A DNA stretch of 64,000 nucleotides, from positions 128,001 through 192,000 of the forward strand of contig CBDVDR010000001.1 in NCBI GenBank assembly GCA_965372795.1, written 5' to 3'. The position numbers were made by a program, and so were the translations under genes. Source of the stretch: an uncultured bacterium. Lineage in GTDB: Bacteria; Zixibacteria; MSB-5A5; GN15; FEB-12. A model generated the notes under the pieces. The model was given only the letters and a program-made list of their open reading frames with translations. It had not been told where the DNA came from and ran no database searches. Shown piece by piece: positions 3,129 through 29,712 of the stretch. Each line of letters opens with the position of its first letter. Position 1 is the stretch's first letter.

Positions 3129-6100
3129 ATGTCTGAGTATCAAAAGAAAGAACCATCGGAAAGTTCTTTTATTTTAAGTCCGTATTCACAAAATATCAGA
3201 AGGAAAATATTAATCCCTTTTGGCGGATTAATTGTCTTGATAATTTCGTTGATCATTTTCAGTAATTCACGTTTTCAAAAAACTTATACTGACTCAGAAA
3301 TCAAATACAAATTAAACACCGTCCATGAATTATTTGAATTTGAATTGCAAGAAGAACTTAACTTAATGACAGCTATTTCAATCGCTATTCAAGATAATGA
3401 AGAAATCAAAAATGTATGGAAGTCAAAAGACAGTAAACAACTTTATTGTTTGACTAAGGATTTGTACAGTTATTACAATTCAAAATTTAACATAACTCAT
3501 TTTTATTTCCATGATACAAATTCAGTAAATTTTCTTAGAGTTCATAAACCGGATTTTTCTGGAGGCACAATTAATCGAACAACATTGTCTCAGGCAATTT
3601 CTTCCGGTATAATTAGTTCAGGTATAGAATTAGGTCTTTTTGGGACTACTACTTTTAGAGTTGTTGTTCCATGGAAAGAAAAAGACAAAATCATCGGATA
3701 TATAGAATTTGGAAAAGAGATAGATTTAATTAGAGAAGAAATTGAACAAATCATCGATGTACAAATGGCTATTTATATAAAAAAATCACATCTATCCAAA
3801 GAGGCATTTGAAAGTGGAATGGAATTATTAGGTAGAAAATCTACCTGGGATAGGTATGATCTTGGAGTATTTATTAACAAACAGAAAGCTGACTTTTTCG
3901 ATAAATTAACACCAATTGTAGATTTGAGCCATAATAAACATAAGGACAGTTATCTTCAATTTAATTCTGATGGAAACAACTATTCTGTAGGTTTTATTCA
4001 ACTCAACAACGCAGCCGGAATTGATATTGGTGATTTAATTATTCTAACAAATGTCACGGAAAGAATTGCAACCTCGCACAAATACATTTTATACTTATGC
4101 TTGATTCTTCTTCCATTAGGAGGCTTATGCATATATTTATTTAATATCATATTACGAAAAGTTGAAGAAGATTTAGATACCTCCCAGCAAAAGTTATTAG
4201 TTTCATCACAAGCTCAATTTGATTACCAAAACATGAATTTACAAAAACTTAAGGGTGAAATAGTTGAAAGTAAAACCGCTGAACAGGCGTTAAGAGAGTC
4301 AGAACAAAAGTACCACGAGTTGTTCACATCAATTATTGAAGGTATCGCGGTATTTGACAGCAACGAAAATATTTTATTCTGTAATCCGGCTTTTGCAAAA
4401 ATCTTTGATGTTAATCCGCATTCTATGATCGGTAGTAATTTAATGGAGTTTGTTTCTGATCATAAAAGAGGATTTATTAAATCGAAAAACGCAAAATATG
4501 AATTAGAAATATTAAATTCTAAGAAAGAATTGAGATACATACATATTTCAGCAACGGCCAGATTCGATGCCAACGGAAAATTTATTGGCACTTTTGCTGC
4601 CATAGATGATATAACTCAGAAAAAACAATTTGAGAAAGTCCTTAAAGAGAGTGAAGAAAAGTTCCGGGAAATAGTTAATAATTCAAATGACGGGGTTGTC
4701 TCAATCGATTCTAATCAATCCATAAAATTATGGAATAATGGAGCCCTTCAAATTTTTGGTTATAAAGAAGAAGAAATTATCGGACAGGACATTTCTGTTT
4801 TAATTGCCGATGGATTTGTCGAAAAATATAAAAAAACCATTCGAATTATGACTAAACACGGCCTGAGTCTTTTGGATAATAAAATATTTGAAGTTTCGGG
4901 TCGACATAAAAAAGGAAATGTAATACCCCTTGAAATAACCCTGTCATCTCGGACCAATAGTGATAATTCAATCTATATAACAGGATTCGTTCGAGATATC
5001 AGCGAACGAAAATCATTTGAAAATCAGCTTAAAACCTTAGCCGAATTTCCAAAATCAAATCCAAACGTTATTATGTCATTAAACCGGAATGCTGAATTAG
5101 TTTTTATTAACCCAGCCGGATCAAGATTGCTAAAAGTATTAAAAATTCAAGAACAATCGATTCTTAAAATTTTCCCGAAAAACATAAAAAATATTATTGA
5201 TGCAACATTATTAACTTCAAATAATGTTCTCGGAATCGAATCTACCTATGCTAATCGAACCTGGCTCTGGTTTTTTCATCCGGTTAATTCATCCGGTATA
5301 GTTCATGGGTTTGCAACTGAAATCACAAAAAGTCTTAAACAGGCTGATGAACATCAAAAACTATCTGCCGCCGTATCACAATCAGACAACATAATAATAA
5401 TTACCGATCCAAACGGATTAATTGAATATGTAAATCCAAAATTCACTCAGATTACCGGATTCAGTCTTGAAGAAACTATAAGTCATGATTTTGCCAGCTT
5501 TAGCTCAAAAAAACATGACCGGACATTTTATCTGGAACTGTGGAACACTTTGAAAAAGGGTAAGACCTGGTCGGGTTCTTTCCATATTAGAAAAAAAACT
5601 GGCAGCCATTATTGGGAAAAACGGGTAATATCGCCTATCTATAACGAAGATGAAATACTTGGATACCTTTCAATTGGAGAAGATATTACCAACGAGCTAA
5701 AGATTCAACAGCAATTGAAAGAAACTGACAAGCTCTCTGCTATCGGGACCCTTGCTGCGGGGGTTGCCCATGAATTCAAAAATTATCTCACCGGGATAAT
5801 CGGAAATGCTTCATTTGCTCTTGATGAAATTACGGATGAGAATGATCCGATGAAAGAGACTCTTGAACAGATTATTAAAATTGGTGAAAATGCAAATGAA
5901 ATAGCAATGTCATTACTAACCTATTCAAAAGCGGAACTTGAAGCCTTTGCAGAAGAAGACCCTCAACAAGTAATCGCCTCTACCCTCAAATTAGTAGAAA
6001 AAGAGATGGCAAGCTTATCTATCGAGATTGTTACCTGCTTTGAGAAAGTGCCGCTTGTTACAATGTCATCAAATAGAATCCAGCAGTTAATTTTAAATCT

Positions 6101-6818
6101 CCTGATCAACGCCCAACACGCTATTCGATCTCATGGAGTTATAACGATAACAATCATCCAACAGGATAATAGTATTAAAATTAAGGTTGGAGATTCCGGC
6201 TGTGGAATTCCAAATAATCTTTTAGATAAGATTTTTGATCCCTTCTTTTCCACCAAAGGGGTATGGGGCAAAGAAGAAAAATCAGGAACCGGCATGGGTT
6301 TGTCGATTTGTAAAAATATTGCTATCGAGCATGGCGGGGACTTAACCGCTAATTCCATCAAAGGAATAGGCAGTAATTTTACTTTGACAATACCTATTCT
6401 CAGAAGTGAAACAGATTTAATCCCTACTGTCGATAGCAAATTTGCAGGCTTAAAAATAATTTTACTTACTTTGAATAAAGAGTTTATAAGTTTCTATTCA
6501 AAAGAAGCCACGGTTATAGATTGTCAATTAGTTATGCTTGATGATATTGCTAAAATTTTAAATATGGAAATAAATGCTGATCTGGTTATATGTGATGCAA
6601 AATATGTCGCCAAAATTGAGCTTCAAAAATTAATAGAAATGTGTCTTGAAAAAAATATCCCTTATATGTTAATCAATGCAAAAATAAGAGAATATCAGCT
6701 TGAAGAAATTTATAGAAATTCTTTTGCAGTTTTTAAAACATGTCCCACGCTCGCAAGACTATTGACAATGTCTTATGATGTTACTAATCATAGTAATAAT
6801 AAATTCATCAAAACTTAA
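3129..6818 (+). CDS. Membrane sensor histidine kinase (Cache-like periplasmic domain, multiple PAS domains, degenerate C-terminal receiver-like domain)
   Basis: Two TM helices flanking an 'FLRVHKP...SGIELG' Cache region, PAS repeats, H-box AHEFKN, N/G boxes NLLINA, DSGCGI, GTGMGL. Confidence 0.9.
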   Translation: MSEYQKKEPSESSFILSPYSQNIRRKILIPFGGLIVLIISLIIFSNSRFQKTYTDSEIKYKLNTVHELFEFELQEELNLMTAISIAIQDNEEIKNVWKSKDSKQLYCLTKDLYSYYNSKFNITHFYFHDTNSVNFLRVHKPDFSGGTINRTTLSQAISSGIISSGIELGLFGTTTFRVVVPWKEKDKIIGYIEFGKEIDLIREEIEQIIDVQMAIYIKKSHLSKEAFESGMELLGRKSTWDRYDLGVFINKQKADFFDKLTPIVDLSHNKHKDSYLQFNSDGNNYSVGFIQLNNAAGIDIGDLIILTNVTERIATSHKYILYLCLILLPLGGLCIYLFNIILRKVEEDLDTSQQKLLVSSQAQFDYQNMNLQKLKGEIVESKTAEQALRESEQKYHELFTSIIEGIAVFDSNENILFCNPAFAKIFDVNPHSMIGSNLMEFVSDHKRGFIKSKNAKYELEILNSKKELRYIHISATARFDANGKFIGTFAAIDDITQKKQFEKVLKESEEKFREIVNNSNDGVVSIDSNQSIKLWNNGALQIFGYKEEEIIGQDISVLIADGFVEKYKKTIRIMTKHGLSLLDNKIFEVSGRHKKGNVIPLEITLSSRTNSDNSIYITGFVRDISERKSFENQLKTLAEFPKSNPNVIMSLNRNAELVFINPAGSRLLKVLKIQEQSILKIFPKNIKNIIDATLLTSNNVLGIESTYANRTWLWFFHPVNSSGIVHGFATEITKSLKQADEHQKLSAAVSQSDNIIIITDPNGLIEYVNPKFTQITGFSLEETISHDFASFSSKKHDRTFYLELWNTLKKGKTWSGSFHIRKKTGSHYWEKRVISPIYNEDEILGYLSIGEDITNELKIQQQLKETDKLSAIGTLAAGVAHEFKNYLTGIIGNASFALDEITDENDPMKETLEQIIKIGENANEIAMSLLTYSKAELEAFAEEDPQQVIASTLKLVEKEMASLSIEIVTCFEKVPLVTMSSNRIQQLILNLLINAQHAIRSHGVITITIIQQDNSIKIKVGDSGCGIPNNLLDKIFDPFFSTKGVWGKEEKSGTGMGLSICKNIAIEHGGDLTANSIKGIGSNFTLTIPILRSETDLIPTVDSKFAGLKIILLTLNKEFISFYSKEATVIDCQLVMLDDIAKILNMEINADLVICDAKYVAKIELQKLIEMCLEKNIPYMLINAKIREYQLEEIYRNSFAVFKTCPTLARLLTMSYDVTNHSNNKFIKT

Positions 6819-21466: not shown

Positions 21467-21537
21467 TTCGCAAGTCTGATAATTCAGACAATGTTTTCTC
21501 ACAAGTCCAATAATACCATATATGACAACACTTTACA

Positions 21538-21610
21538 TGGAGCAGATGGGGATCGAACCCACGACCTCTACGTTGCGAACGTAGCGCTCTCCCAACTGAG
21601 CTACTGCCCC
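21538..21610 (-). tRNA. tRNA-Ala(CGC)
   Basis: GGGGCAGTAGCTCAGTTGGGAGAGCG, anticodon arm CTACG-TTCGCAA-CGTAG, GGTTCGATCC; CCA not encoded. Confidence 0.96.
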
Positions 21611-21673
21611 GTTATTATCAATTTTGGGGTTGTACTATAACAAAAAATGTAGAATTAACCAAGCTGTTTTTGC

Positions 21674-22261
21674 TTAGAAAACCAAACCACCCCGCAGGAC
21701 AATGATCGGATTGGTCGAAACCTCATAAACTTCCGATCTGCCATAAGGCGCCCCAAAAATCACCAACTCACCCAACACTGCATATTTGGGATCAATAAAA
21801 AATACGATTTCTGTGCCAAGATGATAAGTCAGCAGATTTGCTTTTTTCAAAAATCCCATCTTTGCCAGATAAGCATACCCTAATCCGATAAAAGGTTTAA
21901 TCGCAAATCGCTGACGGGCTTTATTGATAATCCGTTTTAATCGGATATTCAGATCGAGGGCTTTTTCATGTTCATCATACGCATAAATATTCTGGATATT
22001 ACTCTCGAATCCAACCATCAGTTTGCGATTGATCGGGATATCAAAAAATATCCCAACCGATAAACCGGGACTGGTTTCAAAATCGTTGGCATCGGTATCG
22101 GAATCTTTAAGTTTTAGATGAATGGTACTTGAGTTGATGATGCCGGCTTTGAACCCAAACCCGCCTTTAACGATACTTTTATTAAAGGCATAAATCGGAC
22201 TACTAATTAAAATCAGAATTATTATTGCTGTAATTAATAGTATGATTTTTTTTGTCATCAA
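21674..22261 (-). CDS. Outer-membrane beta-barrel protein (8-stranded, PorT/OmpW-like)
   Basis: Signal peptide, FGFKAG first strand, KPFIGLGY, terminal Phe. Confidence 0.75.
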   Translation of the reverse strand: MMTKKIILLITAIIILILISSPIYAFNKSIVKGGFGFKAGIINSSTIHLKLKDSDTDANDFETSPGLSVGIFFDIPINRKLMVGFESNIQNIYAYDEHEKALDLNIRLKRIINKARQRFAIKPFIGLGYAYLAKMGFLKKANLLTYHLGTEIVFFIDPKYAVLGELVIFGAPYGRSEVYEVSTNPIIVLRGGLVF

Positions 22262-22338
22262 AACTCTCGGTTAAATCTTTCTTTGGTCGGTCATAATACA
22301 ATCAGAAATAATTTACTTATAAGACGTAAAAAGTCAAC

Positions 22339-22372
22339 ACACGTTGTGTGATTTAACACGTTGTGTGATTTA
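22339..22372. repeat. 17-bp perfect tandem duplication
   Basis: ACACGTTGTGTGATTTA x2. Confidence 0.9.
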
Positions 22373-22377
22373 TTATT

Positions 22378-22943
22378 CGTGGGCGGCAGACGCCCTCGTC
22401 TGCCCCATACATGTAGTGTTTCTTCGTGGGCGACAGACGTCAACCACAATTCGTGTGCTCGTCTGCCCCACTCTTCGTAGGGAACAGGCATGCCTGTTCC
22501 GTTTCTTTTACATGTTTTTCGCTGTAAATTGTTCTGTAACTGACTTATACAATGAATTGGGTTCGTTTTGTTACTTTTGACATAGTGATGTCTTTGACAC
22601 ATTTCGTGTGGTTTCATGTTCTGTTGGGTCTTGATTTGTCGAAGACAAATTGTGACCCGACAGCATTTCTCTTGAGTAGGTCAGTAGCCCTGCGCTCCTG
22701 ACGAGTTGGCAGGATCACAGGGATCCTGCCCTACTTGAACTTGATTTTGTAGTTATGATTTTGGACATAGCAAACCGTACCTCCTTTTATATAGGGGTGC
22801 AAGACCGCAATCATCAGGAAAAGTGTGGGGAATTTGTAAATTAAAGACGGGTGGCGCCCTCAAACTTGTTTGGGGGTACTGTGGACGGTTCATCCACAAT
22901 TGAATTAATTGAATAGAAACCCACCCCAAGGGGTGGGCTACCC
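22378..22943. repeat. Left cluster of REP-like palindromic elements
   Basis: GTGGGCGGCAGACG..CGTCTGCCCC, GTAGGGAACAGGCATGCCTGTTCC, GTTGGGTC..GACCCGAC, GTAGGTCAG..CTGAC/GGCAGGATC..GATCCTGCCCTAC, AACCCACCCCAAGGGGTGGGCTACCC. Confidence 0.8.
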
Positions 22944-22946
22944 AGC

Positions 22947-25553
22947 TTAAATACTATTTAATTCAATATTCTCTTTTAGTCTTTGCAAATGAAAATTATT
23001 AACATCAAGTTGTAATCCTTTGTTAACATATTCTTTTGCTTTTCCTTTGTCTTTTATATTAAAGGCTAACCACGCAAATCGAGAATAATCTTGCGCGTCC
23101 GCTTCATCTATTCTTGTATCAATAATTCCTAGTAATTCAGGAATCATAATTTGTTTTTCATCCATTCCAATTTTATCAAAGCGTTCTTTAAATAGTGCAT
23201 TACAAGTATTAACAGAATTACTTATGTCACCAAAAGGAATTTTAGGAATTTGACAAAGTTCCAATAAACTATTTATTACTTCATACCAATTCATATTCAT
23301 TTCACATAATCTTGAAATTCTTTTCCATGAATATATTTTATCTGATTTTGAGATATTATCACTCTCAAGAAATCTCATAACTGCATCGATTGAAGCATCA
23401 ATCATATTACATTCTTCGTATAATTCAGAAAGTGTTAACCATGCAGGCGTATAATTTGATGCTAAGAACTCTAATGTTTGTGAGTAATTAGATATTTCTT
23501 CTCCTTTATTACAGACCTTGTCTGCAACATGTTGAAACATACGTTCCACTCTTGGTTTAATTCCATGAATAACATCAGTTTGTTGCGATGTTCCAAAACA
23601 TTGAAGAAATTTAGTGTCTTCTTCAATTTTTCTTTTCAGTGGTGCTATGGGTAGTTTACGTTTTCCAAATATAGAAGCGACCAAAGGGACTGAAATAAAC
23701 TCCATATTGAAACTATCTTTCGAATAACTAATTTCAATAAAAGAACTCTTTGTAAGTTCATCAATCGCAGAAGTTACATCAAGTTTTTCACCTACCGATG
23801 GCTTTAAATATAGGGCTTGTAGGGCAAGCATAGGTATTGATGATCTCCAATTACAAAGAGTAAGGAAAATTCTCTTTGCTGCTTGAGATAATCCTGAAAA
23901 TGTTCTTTCAAACAGTGCTTGAAGAATATCATCTTTTGTTGCAATAATCCTTTTTACCTTTAAAACCTTTTTTTCTTTTGCAACTTCACCTAGAAGGATT
24001 TTAATTACATATGGATGACCCCTCGCTTCCTCTATTAAAGAAGTTTTGTAAGATGAAGTAATAATTTTCTGAATCCCTAATTGCTTGGAGTACCTATCAA
24101 TTAGTTCTTTACATTGTCTATCTGACATTCCACTAACTTCAATAGGATAATCTCCCTTAAATTCTCTTTTTCTTGTAGTAATTAACACTTTATTTGGTAA
24201 TCTAATATTAGTATTGATCCAATTATATGTTTCAATTGGATCTCTAACCGTCTCAAAGTTATCAAATACAAATAAAACTTTTCCTATCTCACTCTTTTGG
24301 AAATAATTCGAAAGGTAACTCAATTGTTTAAATGATTTATCATTTTTTTCTTTTGGATTTAGCAAGTTTACAAATTCTTTTGCTATCTCTTTATTTGAGA
24401 CAGTATGAGGTCTCACGATTTTAGGTCCTGTTTGAAGTAAATCAATGTCTCGTGCACTAAACCAGATTATTACATTAAAATTTGAATGTAAAGCAATGTC
24501 ATGTAATACTGTTAGACCAAGCCATGTTTTGCCAATTCCCCCTCTACCTAAAAGTGTAATCATTGGGTGTCTATCATCAAGCAAACACTTATGAAGCTCT
24601 TCCTCTAACTTATTCCTACAAATGTAATTATTAGGCTTGTCAGGTATGTTTGTAAATGTGTCGCCAATTGTTCTTAAACTTTCCAAGCCCTGCGTTTCAC
24701 TTTTAGGTAGATTTTCAACTGGTGTGAGGTATGGAGAAGAATCTTCTTCTTTTTTATTACCTGAATAATATGAAAGTAATTCAAATTTATTTTCTGTAAA
24801 TCCACCATTCGGAAAATAAAAATCTGATGCATCAGGATCTGAGAAAATTAAATCAATCTTTGTGAATTTATCAGAATAAATATAAAGACCATCTCGAAGA
24901 TTTTGATTTGTACTGTGTTTAAAAATATCAAAACAATCCACATTTTCGGAAATTGATGTTACCCTGTATTTTCTTGATATATTCTGATATAAATACGCCC
25001 ATGGTTTCTTAAAAAGACTTAAATTTTCTACAATTAATTGAATTGATCCTTCAAGTAAATAACATGCTTGGCTGACTTTTGCTACAGTTGGTGCTCCATG
25101 CCCTCTTGTCTTATTTCTTAACACTACAAAATCAATTATCCACTTTTTCAATGGAACTTTTGGCATAGTTTCGAATTGTTTAATATCTAGTAAAAATAGT
25201 ACTTGTTCCAATTTTGCAACTGCTTCAAATTGCCAATCACCTTCTCCGACCTTTTGTGTTATTTCTTTTCTATCATCAATAATTGATGGTTGGATAAATT
25301 GTGAAGCAGGTCCATTTAGGGCATCAAATAGTGCCGCTTCCCAAGCACCAAGACTGCTGGCATGGACTAAATTATACGACAATCTATATCTATGTTTATC
25401 TTTTTCATCTTCGATACACGCAATAATGCTTGCAGTAATTAATTTTGTAATCATTTCTCCAAAATATAATAAATCCAAAAATAATGATGCGTCTGAATCT
25501 TCTCTTGTAATAGAAATTCTTTCCCACATTTTATCAATTGGTCTAAATTGCAT
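22947..25553 (-). CDS. NB-ARC/STAND NTPase with N-terminal HEPN-like motif and C-terminal TPR-like helices; candidate antiviral protein
   Basis: Walker A GRGGIGKT, Walker B VLFVFDNFE, sensor LITTR, GHP motif; N-terminal RNKTRGH; ATG 25553 behind GCGGGGA. Confidence 0.85.
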   Translation of the reverse strand: MQFRPIDKMWERISITREDSDASLFLDLLYFGEMITKLITASIIACIEDEKDKHRYRLSYNLVHASSLGAWEAALFDALNGPASQFIQPSIIDDRKEITQKVGEGDWQFEAVAKLEQVLFLLDIKQFETMPKVPLKKWIIDFVVLRNKTRGHGAPTVAKVSQACYLLEGSIQLIVENLSLFKKPWAYLYQNISRKYRVTSISENVDCFDIFKHSTNQNLRDGLYIYSDKFTKIDLIFSDPDASDFYFPNGGFTENKFELLSYYSGNKKEEDSSPYLTPVENLPKSETQGLESLRTIGDTFTNIPDKPNNYICRNKLEEELHKCLLDDRHPMITLLGRGGIGKTWLGLTVLHDIALHSNFNVIIWFSARDIDLLQTGPKIVRPHTVSNKEIAKEFVNLLNPKEKNDKSFKQLSYLSNYFQKSEIGKVLFVFDNFETVRDPIETYNWINTNIRLPNKVLITTRKREFKGDYPIEVSGMSDRQCKELIDRYSKQLGIQKIITSSYKTSLIEEARGHPYVIKILLGEVAKEKKVLKVKRIIATKDDILQALFERTFSGLSQAAKRIFLTLCNWRSSIPMLALQALYLKPSVGEKLDVTSAIDELTKSSFIEISYSKDSFNMEFISVPLVASIFGKRKLPIAPLKRKIEEDTKFLQCFGTSQQTDVIHGIKPRVERMFQHVADKVCNKGEEISNYSQTLEFLASNYTPAWLTLSELYEECNMIDASIDAVMRFLESDNISKSDKIYSWKRISRLCEMNMNWYEVINSLLELCQIPKIPFGDISNSVNTCNALFKERFDKIGMDEKQIMIPELLGIIDTRIDEADAQDYSRFAWLAFNIKDKGKAKEYVNKGLQLDVNNFHLQRLKENIELNSI

Positions 25554-25591
25554 AGTATTCCCCGCACTGTAAATGTTGTGTAATGTGTTCA

Positions 25592-25620
25592 AATATATGA
25601 TAAATACATCTTTTTGTCAA
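25592..25620 (-). promoter_or_regulatory. Sigma70-type promoter of the NB-ARC gene
   Basis: TTGACA-N17-TATATT on the minus strand. Confidence 0.65.
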
Positions 25621-25666
25621 TATCCACACAACTTCAATGGTGATTACTGATCCGCACCCAATTAAT

Positions 25667-26452
25667 ATGAGACACTATACAAAAAAACAAAAGCTGGCGA
25701 ACCAACGGAACGCCAAAAAATCCACCGGGCCAAAGACGCCCGAGGGTAAAGCAAAATCATCGCAAAATGCGATCAAACACGGCCTCTATGCCAAATCGGT
25801 CATCATCCGCTCGCCCAACTACAACGAAGACCGCAACGAGTACGACCAACTCGCCCAATCACTCTTTGAAGAACTAAAACCCGCAACCCATTTCCAGGAA
25901 ACCCTGGTCATCAAAATCATCAACTGCCTCTGGCGCAGCAAACGGGTCGTAATCGCCGAAACCGCCAAAATCTCTAAACAAATTAACCTTGTTACAAAAA
26001 ACCACGATCCCAAAAATGGGGAGAACGAACTTGTCAACGAAATTGGTATCAATCTGATTCCGACCGATAATTACAGCATTAACCTGATGCGCCATGAAAT
26101 GCGCCTCGACAAACAACTTAACCGTACTTATGAGCTCCTGAAACAACTCCAGAAAACATCCAAACCCAAAAGTAAATCTAAAAGTAACAAAACGAACCCA
26201 TTTAACAATCAAAAGAAAAGTGATAATTTACGTGGGCGGCAGACGTCCTCGTCTGCCCCAAAGGTACGTGGTGGCAGTCAACCACACCATGTGTGCTCGT
26301 CTGCCCCAGAGATAAACACCCCTGAAGTCAGCGATGCACAAATCGTCCGTGATCTGATCAAACTTTCTAAATTACATGACATGGAAATCCTGACCCCGAC
26401 CCCTTTGGAAAAACTAAACAGGATTTCAAAAAACAAGTCTTCACCCTTGTAG
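25667..26452 (+). CDS. Hypothetical protein of the 'ANxxNAxKSTGPKTxEGK...NAxKHGL' family
   Basis: Recognisable N-terminal motif, then helical 'P...E..LV..I....WR..R' region; C-terminus formed partly by in-frame REP-like sequences; alternative start 25637. Confidence 0.75.
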   Translation: MRHYTKKQKLANQRNAKKSTGPKTPEGKAKSSQNAIKHGLYAKSVIIRSPNYNEDRNEYDQLAQSLFEELKPATHFQETLVIKIINCLWRSKRVVIAETAKISKQINLVTKNHDPKNGENELVNEIGINLIPTDNYSINLMRHEMRLDKQLNRTYELLKQLQKTSKPKSKSKSNKTNPFNNQKKSDNLRGRQTSSSAPKVRGGSQPHHVCSSAPEINTPEVSDAQIVRDLIKLSKLHDMEILTPTPLEKLNRISKNKSSPL

Positions 26453-26648
26453 GGCAGAACCCTTTAGTGGTTCTGCCATTCCGTCAGTTGGGCATCCGCC
26501 TTGGCGGACTGACCTACTCAAGAGAATTAATTTGAGAGAGTTGTCTGTATAGATCAGGTCTCGAAGCCAAGAGAGACCTGACCTACGGAACTGAGATTGC
26601 TTCGTCGCTTCACTCCTCGCAATGACATGGGGCAGACGAGCACACGAA
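26231..26648. repeat. Right cluster of REP-like palindromic elements
   Basis: GTGGGCGGCAGACGTCCTCGTCTGCCCCA, GTAGGGCAGAACC..GGTTCTGCC..CTGACCTACTCAAGAGAA, TCAGGTCTC..GAGACCTGACCTAC, GAGATTGCTTCGTCGCTTCACTCCTCGCAATGACA, TGGGGCAGACGAGCACACGAA. Confidence 0.82.
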
Positions 26649-26669
26649 GTGTGTCTGGCTATAAATCCC

Positions 26670-26698
26670 TTGACAAACTGGACAAACTGGGGTAATAT
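26670..26698 (+). promoter_or_regulatory. Sigma70-type promoter
   Basis: TTGACA-N17-TAATAT upstream of GGAGG + GTG start. Confidence 0.55.
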
Positions 26699-26750
26699 TA
26701 AACAGACAACAATATGTTATTCTTCCTATAAAACTTACATGGAGGGAGCC

Positions 26751-27887
26751 GTGAAAATATTATTTCTATCAATTTCAATCTTACTACTAATCGCCTTTTC
26801 TGTTAATGCCCAGACAATTTCCGGTTGCGGTACTTTGGTGCAGGGTTCAGAGTGTGTGCTGATACAAATGGACGGCATCAATCAACTGGTTGCCGCTGAT
26901 AACACCTGCCAATATGTAGTAGGTGATCGGGTCTGTTTTGAAGCGCATTTCATTTTCCCCATTGTTCCAGTATGCGGTGGTGAAGGTGTTCCCGTCGTAA
27001 TTGATTATATTGAGGGCTGCACAGTCAGCTATGAAAACTGCGGTGTTCTTGGACAGGGCGTTGAAGGCTGCGTGACAATCAGCACCGATGATGGCCATGT
27101 CTATATGGTTTTTGGTGATGTTGGAAATTACCAATCGGGTGATTATGTCAAAGTTTCCGGAGGGCTTGATTTGTCATGCACAACAACCTGCATGGCGGGT
27201 GAAGGCTGTTTATATCTGGATTCAATTCAAAGCTGTTCGCCGTATGATGCGACCGTATGCGGAACTCTGGTTCAGGGTAACAATTGTGTATTGTTGCAAA
27301 CCGATGACAACTCGCTTGTTTATCTTGATTATTTCTGCGGTGAGGTCGGCGATTATGTTTGTGCCTCGGGGTCCTATTCGATACTGACCGTTACCCCATG
27401 TGAAGGCGAAGAAGATATGGTTATGAATGTTGAATATATGGATTGTTTTGACATGGTTGATTATTGCGGTAGGGTTGAAGTCGGTTTTGAATGTACTATG
27501 TTCATACCTGTCGATTCGTCATCCTTCTTCCCTTATGTGCTCGACAATTATTTTGGACATGAAGACGGCGATATTTTCCGTGCCAAAGGTTATATTGTCC
27601 CAACTGATTACTGGGTCTGTATGGGTTTTCAATGGATCATCCATGTGACATCGATTTCAGAGTGCGGATGTGTGGGGATGCGTGGAAATTGTGATGGTGA
27701 TATGGCTGATGAAATCACAATCAGCGATCTGACCTTTCTGGTTGAATATCTCTTTTTAAATGGTGAGGCACCGATAAATATGGATGAAGCGGATATTGAT
27801 GGATCAGGAGAAATTTTAATTACCGATATAACCTATCTGGTTAATTATATGTTCTTAAATGGAGATTCTCCGGCTTCATGCCCATAA
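26751..27887 (+). CDS. Secreted Cys-rich protein with four ~70-aa repeats and C-terminal dockerin-like domain
   Basis: Signal peptide from GTG 26751; repeats CG.L.QG..C....D.....GD.V...G; C-terminal CVGMRGN..TISDLTFLVEYLF..ITDITYLVNYMF. Confidence 0.85.
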   Translation: MKILFLSISILLLIAFSVNAQTISGCGTLVQGSECVLIQMDGINQLVAADNTCQYVVGDRVCFEAHFIFPIVPVCGGEGVPVVIDYIEGCTVSYENCGVLGQGVEGCVTISTDDGHVYMVFGDVGNYQSGDYVKVSGGLDLSCTTTCMAGEGCLYLDSIQSCSPYDATVCGTLVQGNNCVLLQTDDNSLVYLDYFCGEVGDYVCASGSYSILTVTPCEGEEDMVMNVEYMDCFDMVDYCGRVEVGFECTMFIPVDSSSFFPYVLDNYFGHEDGDIFRAKGYIVPTDYWVCMGFQWIIHVTSISECGCVGMRGNCDGDMADEITISDLTFLVEYLFLNGEAPINMDEADIDGSGEILITDITYLVNYMFLNGDSPASCP

Positions 27888-27918
27888 GATAGAAATCTGA
27901 CAGTAAATATAAATCCTT

Positions 27919-27952
27919 AAGGCAGGTCTTCCCCGGGCTTGCCTTTATTTTT
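27919..27952 (+). terminator. Intrinsic terminator
   Basis: AAGGCAGGTC..GGCTTGCCTT followed by T-rich tract. Confidence 0.65.
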
Positions 27953-28014
27953 AATTTAAAAAAACTGTAAAATATGATTTTACCTTTGAGCTTTATTTGC
28001 TATATTATTCAGCT

Positions 28015-29712
28015 ATGAGTTACCTCGTATTAGCCCGAAAATACCGCCCCATGACTTTCAAAGACGTTGTGGCGCAAGAACATGTGACGAAAACTATCCA
28101 GAACAGCGTCCAAAATGACCGTCTGGGTTCCTCGTATCTGTTCTGCGGACCCCGAGGTACCGGAAAAACCACGACTGCCCGTATTTTGGCAAAAATGATA
28201 AATTGTGCCGAAGGTCCCACGCCGACTCCATGTGGTGAATGTGCTGCCTGTATCGAAATCACCAACGGTTCGTCACTTGATGTGCTTGAAATTGATGCTG
28301 CCTCAAATACCGGCGTCGATGATATTCGCACTTTGCGTGAGAATGTCCGCTATATGCCAACCTCGGGTAAAATGCGAATCTACATTATTGATGAAGTCCA
28401 TCGTTTATCGGGCGCGGCTTTTGATGCTTTATTGAAAACTCTTGAAGAACCACCGGCTCATGTGATGTTTATTTTTGCGACTACGGAACCGAACAAAGTT
28501 CCGGAGACGATTCTTTCCCGTACTCAGAGATTTGATTTTAAAAGAGTAACGGTTGAAGACCTGGCTAAAAATCTTATCAATATTGCCCAGAAAGACAAAG
28601 TTGAGGTTAATGATGCGGCGGCAAAATTACTCGCCCGCAAGGCTGATGGTTCGGTTCGGGATTCTCTTTCACTATTGGATCAAATAATAGCCTTTGCCGG
28701 AACAAAAATAATTGAACAAGATGTAATTGACGGCTTGGGATTAGTTGATCGGCAATTCCTATTTGAATTTACCGAAGCAATTGCCTCCAAAAATAGTAAA
28801 AATGTTCTTAAGCATATTCGCCAACTGTTCGAGAGCGGCGTTGATATAAAAGATTTTGTAAACGAGCTATTGGAACATCTTCGGGTTCTGATGATTCTTG
28901 CCACCGACAAAGAGGTTGGTCCGGAATTAAATTTTGCCGAAGAAGAGTTAAAGCAATATCTGGTTCAGGCTGACTATTTTTCAATCGGTGATATAATCAG
29001 GTTTATGACAATGGGTGCTGATTTGAATCGTGATTTACGAGGCGGCATGAATGAACGGTTGTTGCTTGAGATGACCGGCGTGAAGATGGCTGAAATGGAA
29101 TCGACTATCCTGTTGCAGGATGTCATCGCCCGTTTGGATGTTGTTTCACAATCGGGTGATTCAGGAGCTGATCTTTTCAAAACTCCAGAAAAAAAAAAGA
29201 GTTTAATTAACACCCCACCAGAAACCCCATCCCGAGAACGAGTTACTTTTGTAAAACGTGAGACTCCCCCGGACACAGAAAGTATTCCTGAAAAAGATTA
29301 TTCGGGACAGGTTAATATTCCAATTTTAACTCAGGGGTGGAGCAATTTTATCCAAAGTTTAAAATTAAAAAGCCCGATGCTGGCGTCTCAGTTGAGCATG
29401 GCTGAGATTAAAGAAGTAAAAGATAGCAAAATTCTGTTTGTTTTTTCTACTTCCGAACAGGCATCTAAGGAACTTGTTGAAAAACAGGATAATATTCGCG
29501 TAATAACTGATACATTACGGGATCATTTCAGAGCTAATATTAGTATAAGATTCGATATCGACAACGATAAGAATTCTCATTCGAAAGAAGAGAATGAAAT
29601 TGAAACGAATAATCAGAGTGTCGCAAAATTGATTGAACAATCCCCGAGGATAAAATCTTTGATCGAAAAGGTCGATGGGGAAATTATCGGTTTGAAGAAA
29701 ATAAAAAAATAA
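28015..29712 (+). CDS. dnaX: DNA polymerase III subunit gamma/tau
   Basis: [21 protein letters not shown], zinc module, [22 protein letters not shown]. Confidence 0.97.

Follow-up and report, generated by a model that had tools for sequence, protein, structure and literature searches.

The locus and the inverted repeat

This analysis concerns a short inverted repeat, and the two genes lying between its arms, in a 64-kb stretch of DNA (the window) from an uncultured bacterium of the Zixibacteria lineage (GenBank assembly GCA_965372795.1, contig CBDVDR010000001.1). In our notation the window is G000:C1:128001-192000, G000 being the source genome (3.35 Mb in 69 contigs, 38% guanine plus cytosine (GC)). 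Two long open reading frames (ORFs) are present between the arms, namely an 881-amino-acid (aa) ORF on the minus strand, which encodes an NB-ARC STAND NTPase, and a 271-aa ORF on the plus strand, henceforth the orphan gene, which encodes a protein of what we term the STGP/KHGL family. The STAND gene has a GC content of 0.29-0.335 versus 0.38 for the genome, and the orphan gene one of 44% with a strong excess of A and C. Pfam searches recovered no transposase or integrase domain in either ORF, and NCBIfam searches no transposase.

Direct sequence comparison shows the arms to be exact reverse complements over 21 nucleotides (nt), and a repeat search lengthens the pair to 24 nt at 96% identity with one mismatch (22555-22578 and 26180-26203), the arms being separated by 3601 nt. 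Within the window the 21-mer has only these two copies at up to 3 mismatches, and none of 100 dinucleotide shuffles yielded two. The right arm falls inside the orphan ORF, at the residues KSNKTNP, where the alignment with homologues ends, as these cover ~58-65% of the query; copies of a repetitive extragenic palindrome (REP) start soon after, at 26224-26308. No target-site duplication was seen beside the arms when the flanks were read by eye. On all these points, the perfect 21-bp repeat, the AT-rich STAND gene enclosed with a compositionally distinct orphan gene and no integrase or transposase, the right copy at the limit of the conserved region with REP sequence beyond it, and the absence of a clear target-site duplication, our results agree with an earlier description of the locus made from its letters alone (the sequence-only reading). 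That reading proposed the arms as candidate ends of a mobile unit carrying both genes, a proposal which is weighed below against the distribution of the repeat in this and other genomes.

A dispersed REP-like family in the source genome

The 21-nt pair exceeds chance within the window yet is not unique, since the 21-mer occurs 11 times in G000. For its 11-base core, AAACGAACCCA, base composition predicts ~1.5 occurrences in the genome, yet there are 53, and all 53 core copies occupy a single type of REP-like unit with a shared head. In this unit a variable upstream hairpin is followed by the 21-nt head, in which AAAAGTGAGC or AAAAGTAACA precedes the core, then by a short run of T's, an imperfect hairpin in which pairing is preserved despite sequence variation, and a TTAC-type tail ~30 nt beyond the core; a stem of at least 5 pairs together with a tail at the fixed distance is seen in 27 of the 53. 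The units are often clustered at spacings of 70-190 nt, and their orientation relative to neighbouring ORFs follows no simple rule among the 53. The sequence-only reading had suggested counting the motif genome-wide and comparing its copies with the places of orphan-family genes. Copies of both the 21-mer and the core are nearly all solo, and the genome has two copies of the orphan gene.

The left arm fits the consensus of the 53 copies as the head of a complete solo unit, which sits downstream of the STAND gene in the sense orientation of that gene. Similarity between the arms continues for 3 nt past the TG tip and into the family-wide consensus, the TG and CA tips being a point inside that consensus. 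These features, taken together with the conservation of the right arm described in the next section, make it quite probable that the inverted repeat consists of two oppositely oriented copies of a dispersed REP-like repeat, with the tail motif of the orphan gene on the right and a solo unit on the left.

The tail motif of the orphan gene

Of 57 non-redundant loci drawn from several phyla, 35 have a tail motif of the form ACGAACCCA(A/T)TT after the conserved part of the orphan gene, where ~2.6 would be expected by chance. The set was obtained by reducing 99 loci with a usable 3' flank at <90% identity, and the motif was called as ACGAACCCA with no more than one mismatch, ACCCA being kept, in the sense orientation at +420 to +1350 nt relative to the gene start. 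Loci bearing it carry the labels Zixibacteria, Ignavibacteriales, Bryobacterales, Verrucomicrobiia, Phycisphaerae/Planctomycetota and Alphaproteobacteria, Acidobacteriota and Verrucomicrobiota being among the phyla in which it is kept; an A/T-rich stretch and a TG-containing box precede it. Where the motif lies inside the ORF it occupies frames 0, 1 and 2 in 6, 7 and 8 loci respectively, and where it lies after the stop codon the corresponding counts are 3, 5 and 6. The peptide endings TNP, NEP and RTQ, which the sequence-only reading had proposed as common in the family, are found in homologues as the three readings of this one stretch of DNA. Its proposal that the motif is tied to the family at the DNA level regardless of frame is likewise borne out by the 35 loci, spread as they are over all three frames or past the stop, and the pattern supports the view that the tail motif would be a DNA- or RNA-level signal associated with the orphan family and kept whatever the reading frame.

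Among 31 genomes of the order, the median number of exact 11-mer copies is 14 in the 18 genomes with the orphan gene versus 1 in the 13 without it (0-3 per genome for a reversed-pattern control), a comparison that is descriptive only because these genomes are kin and not independent. Across phyla the motif accompanies the orphan gene, whereas other REPs do not; REPs are usually lineage-specific. Upstream of the gene, a C-rich leader box, CCCCACC, is present in 16 of 55 regions, a count that no 7-mer approached beyond 9 in shuffles, and in the window the leader also contains a motif-like box, CGCACCCAATT (Table 1). Readings of the motif as a sigma-70, sigma-54 or extracytoplasmic function (ECF) promoter, a tRNA T-arm, a dif site or an uptake sequence were set aside as poor fits, judged by eye only.

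The STGP/KHGL family

The true start of the orphan gene is probably the ATG at 25667, going by where its homologues begin, and its conserved part extends over ~25667-26200. Homologues are ~200 aa long, are all annotated as hypothetical, and align to the first ~175 residues. With clustering at 50% identity, a profile search assigned 41,373 clusters to the family at E <= 0.001 and 24,856 at E <= 1e-10. The protein is small, basic and helical, and matches nothing in Pfam, NCBIfam, PADLOC or PHROG. In an AlphaFold2 model (pLDDT 74.8) two short N-terminal helices bearing an invariant STGP...GK...N..KHG box are followed by a long helical hairpin. Foldseek found no match to this model in the PDB at E <= 0.001, a VIA-align wide comparison returned just coiled-coil look-alikes with Z < 8, and neither Pfam, NCBIfam nor the fold searches gave any indication of a known transposase, recombinase, helix-turn-helix (HTH) or WYL domain. 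An Atlas search with the protein yielded 30 clusters, all hypothetical, and a plasmid collection four weak matches, each a "hypothetical protein". One longer fused form was encountered, beside a methylase domain and probably arising by read-through, and 15 longer members of the family showed no Pfam domain of note. Searches of the literature for the family or its motif (full text, with 10-mer matches assessed by title, and peptide motifs) found no published work.

A repeated unit, and Y1 enzymes near the motif

When one genome per species was scanned, the orphan family was confirmed at more than 523 places. In one Bryobacterales metagenome-assembled genome 16 loci were compared, and the other 15 share with locus L019 a unit of 1.15-1.24 kb at 88-96% identity, in which the gene follows a leader rich in hairpins and the left and right ends are both fixed. 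No terminal inverted repeat was seen in this unit, and its 1.24 kb contain no second plausible gene besides the orphan. About 20 matching places are present in G031, a 9-Mb relative. The neighbours of the Bryobacterales copies are heterogeneous and include enolase-type, kinase, NACHT and methylase genes as well as transposases; the occurrence of near-identical copies beside such unrelated neighbours is the behaviour of a selfish element resembling an insertion sequence (IS). The orphan gene unit of leader, gene and tail motif, 0.9-1.25 kb in all, is itself a repeated element and probably a selfish one. No empty site was found for the copy at L019, the flanks of which map 4.7 Mb apart in G031.

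Copies of the motif also occur near genes for Y1 enzymes. In G010, a relative of the same order, a gene of the Y1/REP-associated tyrosine transposase (RAYT) type is flanked on both sides by outward-pointing motif units (locus L136). Over the relatives as a whole, motif copies come within 1.5 kb of the Y1 gene at 7 of 79 Y1 loci, and 10 of 10 such copies point away from that gene, as determined by comparing tables by eye; one-sided copies occur in G004, G010, G022 and G026. Among 12 Y1 loci of the Bryobacterales genome none had a convincing motif. As a separate observation, an ORF resembling a Y1 transposase in G021 (L139, G021:C1:643300-645600) is immediately preceded by an N-terminal fragment, 42 residues long, of an orphan-family protein, and three more short fragments of this kind are present in G021 and G024.

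Defence genes on the 5' side of the orphan gene

Polarity was scored at 30 distinct loci of Zixibacteria-type genomes using PADLOC matches at E <= 1e-5. Loci L005 (neighbours unscanned), L007 (no 5' flank), L109 and L123 (contigs of L003 and L010) and L110 (96% identical to L112) were dropped. The nearest ORF on the 5' side has a PADLOC match in 14 of the 30 loci, and either of the two nearest in 17, as opposed to 1 of 27 for the nearest ORF on the 3' side, the single case being a generic sigma-54 activator domain. The 5' matches include Hachiman, PifA-like, Old/AriA-like (twice), HEC-05/PDC-M55C, PD-Lambda-5, PDC-M36, PDC-M34B and PDC-S35 (TIR), together with an RmrA/capP-like M78 protein with DUF4411, type II and IIG restriction-modification, and a subtilase; the STAND gene of the window is not counted among them. 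The orphan gene and its cargo are arranged head to head with 45-160 nt between them in the window, at the paralogous locus described below and in many relatives, and are co-directional in 6 loci. This strict polarity bears out the suggestion, made in the sequence-only reading, that the orphan family is linked to defence cargo.

Two loci from one genus, L108 (G019) and L120 (G022), are orthologous in their flanks, two tRNAs and the orphan gene at ~70% nucleotide identity, in the order tRNA-Pro, then orphan, DoxX and tRNA-Arg. Between tRNA-Pro and the orphan leader the one carries PDC-M36 and the other an Old/AriA-like ATPase plus a 282-aa ORF. The swap has its breakpoints at the tRNA and within the leader of the orphan gene, and no motif is present there. 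Defence cargo thus turns over at a hot spot of which the orphan gene is a stable edge.

Two further arrangements were noted at these loci. A pair of genes for an M78 (ImmA/IrrE-like) protein and a DUF4411 protein stands beside the orphan gene in three genomes of two families (L104, L110 and L112), co-directional in one locus and divergent in two, with 54% identity between the M78 proteins and 44% between the orphan proteins. At L004:2746-3866, partial and full orphan copies are apparently in tandem beside an Old/AriA-like gene.

The paralogous locus, the variable region and the empty site

By tblastn, the orphan protein is encoded at two places in G000, the second being on contig C2. The C2 paralog lacks a STAND gene and is instead head to head with a Hachiman system (HamA, Pfam 5e-51; HamB, PADLOC 4e-225), and no inverted motif was found beyond HamB. 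The system, HamB and HamA, is complete and together with the orphan gene occupies L103:2752-6893; the type of REP that follows HamB is the same as that which follows the STAND gene. A comparison of the two orphan copies reveals a mosaic, with one mismatch in the first ~315 nt (window 25621-25935 versus L103 ~6022-6340) and ~80% identity thereafter, a pattern in the aligned DNA which suggests that the cargo-proximal end recently underwent gene conversion or recombination. Different REPs are inserted in the two copies at one point just after the motif (26201-26333 in the window), and both ORFs remain open to a shared C-terminal segment (...DAQIVRDLIKLSKL...).

The bracketed unit as a whole is single-copy in G000, and with the STAND protein as a marker it did not recur in G000 or in 30 relatives of the same order. 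The STAND gene probably starts at the ATG at 25553. Its product is single-copy in G000 by tblastn, was not found in any of the 30 relatives, same-genus G001 included, and has no PADLOC family at E <= 0.001 and no solved relative by sequence; PHROG 24039 (function unknown), which matches the NTPase part, is its only PHROG match. The N-terminal ~320 residues, presumed to be the effector part, match nothing in Pfam, PADLOC or solved structures by sequence. The STAND gene is strain-specific, recently acquired cargo in a REP-rich variable region between tRNA-Ala with the outer membrane protein (OMP)-like gene on one side and dnaX on the other.

In G001 the same site is empty, with tRNA-Ala, the OMP-like gene, ~600 nt of REPs and dnaX in succession across two contig ends (C56 and C128) that overlap by ~145 nt. 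Relative to it the window has ~5.6 kb of extra DNA containing REPs, both arms, the STAND gene, the orphan gene and a gene for a DUF5818/dockerin-like secreted protein. The empty site looked for on the strength of the sequence-only reading thus exists, with its junctions away from the arms: the breakpoints at ~22350 and ~27948 fall outside both arms. That reading had itself named such an outcome as refuting, but here it counts only weakly against the mobile unit, since several events may have added up to the 5.6-kb difference. A perfect tandem duplication of the 17-nt unit ACACGTTGTGTGATTTA lies at 22339-22372, where homology with G001 stops, and a 27-nt match to G001 at 22849-22875 was rejected as a synteny anchor, being itself an 8-copy repeat.

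The gap between tRNA-Ala and dnaX measures 177 nt in G010 and from 790 nt to 4.9 kb in G002, G003, G013, G015, G016 and G017, and in none of these seven genomes does it contain a copy of the motif. The OMP-like gene is ancestral content of this gap, which at loci L125-L131 holds 0-7 tandem ORFs of 190-250 aa resembling it, an expanding and contracting array of paralogs. The DUF5818/dockerin-like gene has no orthologue in G001-G005, where only its last ~75 aa have relatives; these residues match the C-termini of dozens of large proteins per relative and, judging from this recurrence, are probably a shared sorting or anchoring domain.

Repeats of three REP families are crowded on either side of the bracketed genes. 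A second perfect inverted repeat, of 19 nt, crosses the 21-nt pair and is not nested with it, and its right arm is the end of a GTAG-type REP (26449-26526) that is shared with contig C2 and with relatives at 94-100%. An Rfam search over 21500-27500 at E <= 1 yielded tRNA-Ala alone.

Table 1. Features of the variable region and its two landmarks, in window coordinates
Feature	Position	Strand	Basis and remarks
tRNA-Ala(CGC), left landmark of variable region	21538..21610	-	Rfam, ARAGORN
OMP beta-barrel-like gene	21674..22261	-	weak Pfam match; 0-7 similar ORFs in same gap in relatives; present in G001
DNA absent from same site in same-genus G001	22350..27948 (approximate)	.	homology to window stops there
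REP copies, GGGCGGCAGACG-type hairpin family, left of left arm	22371..22470	+	repeat search
Whole solo unit: head motif, imperfect hairpin, TTAC-type tail	22514..22578	-	fits consensus of 53 copies
Left arm of 21-nt repeat: head of solo REP-like unit	22558..22578	-	exact match; one of 11 genomic 21-mer copies
Left arm of 19-nt inverted repeat, third REP family	22667..22685	+	repeat search; same REP type after HamB in paralogous locus
NB-ARC STAND NTPase gene, 881-aa ORF	22947..25592	-	Pfam NB-ARC PF00931, 3.6e-14, residues 330-545
Stretch common to window orphan gene and C2 paralog	25621..26518	+	pairwise DNA alignment
Motif-like box CGCACCCAATT in orphan 5' leader	25653..25663	+	one mismatch from tail motif, same orientation; similar forward variants upstream of gene in L010, L011
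Orphan gene, STGP/KHGL family	25667..26452	+	ORF list; listed ORF 25637-26452 (271 aa); homologues begin at equivalent of 25667
Right arm of 21-nt repeat: conserved tail motif of orphan gene unit, inside ORF	26180..26200	+	homologous motif, same place, 35/57 loci
Two REP copies, GGGCGGCAGACG-type hairpin family, in frame within orphan ORF	26224..26308	+	direct-repeat families shared with 22371-22470; paralog carries different insert at same point
Right arm of 19-nt inverted repeat, end of GTAG-type REP	26508..26526	+	repeat search
DUF5818/dockerin-like secreted protein gene	26622..27887	+	Pfam; part of G001 difference
dnaX, right landmark of variable region	27997..29712	+	ORF; conserved in 30/30 relatives

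Relationship to known systems

The closest parallels are with REP/REPIN elements and their RAYT transposases (Y1 HUH, TnpA_REP). Like these, the units are short extragenic repeats in which a hairpin comes after a conserved single-stranded head, number in the tens per genome and are often clustered, and some Y1 genes in relatives are flanked by outward-pointing copies; classical GTAG-type REPs are also present in G000, as a separate family. Unlike in REPs, the head ends in AAACGAACCCA and not in GTAG and is conserved across phyla together with a non-Y1 gene, and no Y1 gene flanked by the motif was found in G000 or in one Bryobacterales genome. Insertion sequences of the DDE type and their miniature inverted-repeat derivatives (MITEs) share with the locus a perfect inverted repeat around genes with TG and CA tips. 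They differ in that the unit in the window is single-copy and has neither a transposase nor a target-site duplication, while its arms are not unique and remain similar past their tips. The Bryobacterales copies are reminiscent of IS200/IS605 elements and their passenger derivatives in having leader hairpins, fixed asymmetric ends and no terminal inverted repeat or evident duplication, although their unit contains no Y1 or TnpB gene.

Integron attC cassettes and the pdif modules of Acinetobacter resemble the orphan loci in that variable cargo, often for defence, lies beside a conserved small gene and is flanked by short inverted sites in a minority of cases. In contrast to those systems, no tyrosine recombinase was present among the ORFs scanned near orphan genes (attC structures were not searched), and most loci lack a second site; to our knowledge the motif resembles neither attC nor dif. 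The orphan gene also recalls BrxR and CapW, regulators with WYL and HTH domains, as a small and often divergent gene beside many different defence systems. It differs from them in being multicopy with conserved non-coding flanks and a conserved 3' DNA motif, in lacking an HTH or WYL domain, and in its all-helical hairpin model. Finally, the STAND protein is unlike known anti-phage STAND systems (Avs and the like) in that it matches no curated PADLOC model.

Interpretation and alternatives

The observed copy numbers and unit anatomy suggest that the right copy would be a conserved cis motif placed after the coding core of the orphan gene unit, as found in many phyla, and the left copy a solo unit downstream of the STAND gene. 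Both arms point outward because the STAND and orphan genes are divergently transcribed; the two would not act together as transposon ends, and we infer that they are functionally unrelated to each other. The units may be spread in trans by a Y1/RAYT enzyme, or else by the orphan protein. In Zixibacteria-type genomes the unit would form one edge of defence islets, with its 5' end toward the cargo. The arms are thus probably not the ends of a transposon carrying the STAND gene, and the contention that they bound a mobile unit of STAND and orphan genes gives way before the dispersal of the 21-mer and its core (11 and 53 copies), the single-copy state of the unit, the paralog without an inverted partner and the position of the G001 breakpoints. 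With the failure of this claim for a defence transposon bounded by the inverted repeat, the STAND gene is to be classed as cargo in a repeat-rich hot spot.

Several observations weigh against treating the arms as unrelated repeats and the motif as a companion of the orphan gene. An inverted motif beyond the cargo is present in 5 of 32 distinct loci (34 scanned), namely the window, L008, L010, L011 and L013, which by a rough estimate is above the ~3% per locus expected from repeat density, and a weaker form of the mobile-unit idea therefore keeps some plausibility. The outward-facing geometry of the arms in the window is that of the motif pairs flanking the Y1/RAYT gene of G010, which makes a functional pairing of inverted units conceivable. 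Since the G001 difference may be composite, its outer breakpoints are compatible with an inner event bounded by the inverted repeat. G010 has 15 copies of the motif and no orphan gene, an exception to the tracking of motif and gene that adds to the kinship of the genomes compared. As for the spreading agent, none of the 3 Y1 loci of G000 has the motif nearby, so that no spreading enzyme was identified in that genome, and the modelled orphan protein appears to have no catalytic fold.

Three alternatives to two unrelated copies of a dispersed repeat were considered. That the orphan protein is a transcription regulator of the adjoining defence genes in the manner of BrxR and CapW, with the motif copies as binding sites or unrelated, would explain the head-to-head layout with its short gap in the window, on C2 and in many relatives, the specific placement of defence genes on the 5' side and the small, basic, helical nature of the protein. 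We nonetheless hold it to be unlikely, given the 16 to ~20 near-identical 1.2-kb Bryobacterales copies that retain their non-coding flanks beside unrelated genes, the absence of an HTH or WYL domain and of any significant fold match, the location of the conserved motif at the 3' end of the gene and not in the shared promoter region, and the 6 loci with co-directional cargo.

About as unlikely, in our estimation, is that the arms are terminal signals of a non-autonomous unit of cargo and orphan gene moved in trans, for instance by a Y1/RAYT-type enzyme acting on inverted motif-hairpin units. Such a unit would accord with a conserved DNA-level motif at the outer (3') end of the orphan gene, with cargo on its inner (5') side in 14-17 of 30 loci, with the inverted motif beyond the cargo in the window and four other loci, and with the outward orientation of all ten motif copies at the 7 of 79 Y1 loci, L136 having them on both sides. 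It is at odds with the nearly always solo state of the 11 21-mers and 53 cores, and with the lack of an inverted partner at the Hachiman-orphan locus and in 27 of the 32 distinct loci. Moreover, at L008, L010, L011 and L013 the orphan gene lacks the tail motif, and at L010 and L011 the pair brackets the cargo alone, because forward variants sit between cargo and orphan. The G001 breakpoints lie outside the arms, those of the L108/L120 swap are without a motif, and there is neither a target-site duplication nor a motif-flanked Y1 gene in G000.

Pure co-accumulation, in which repeats, orphan genes and defence genes gather independently in permissive variable regions with no functional link, fits the behaviour of the region in relatives, where it is a hot spot with a gap ranging from 177 nt to 4.9 kb, and the crowding of three REP families around it, but is also unlikely because it predicts neither the asymmetry between 5' and 3' neighbours (14/30 versus 1/27) nor a motif that tracks the orphan gene across phyla when other REPs do not.

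Implications

Of the ideas that the sequence-only reading had attached to the locus, the more interesting ones survive and are supported, namely that the motif belongs to the orphan family at the level of DNA and that this family is associated with defence cargo. Attention is thereby drawn to a family, numbering over 40,000 clusters at the 50% identity level, for which Pfam, NCBIfam, PADLOC and PHROG have no model, and in one bacterial order its gene marks one edge of defence islets with strict polarity. It is a rather unlikely, if attractive, proposition that the STGP/KHGL protein and ACGAACCCA(A/T)TT constitute a new mobile or recombination module without a known transposase fold, which would spread as a 0.9-1.25-kb unit, seed solo repeats, and capture or anchor defence cassettes on its 5' side. 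Were this so, the inverted motif beyond the cargo in the window and four other loci would be a cassette boundary comparable to integron or pdif sites. Should the orphan protein act on the motif, the two would represent mobile-DNA or cassette machinery of a new class and could serve in practice as a flag when new defence systems are sought; failing that, the orphan gene would still be a useful landmark for defence hot spots.

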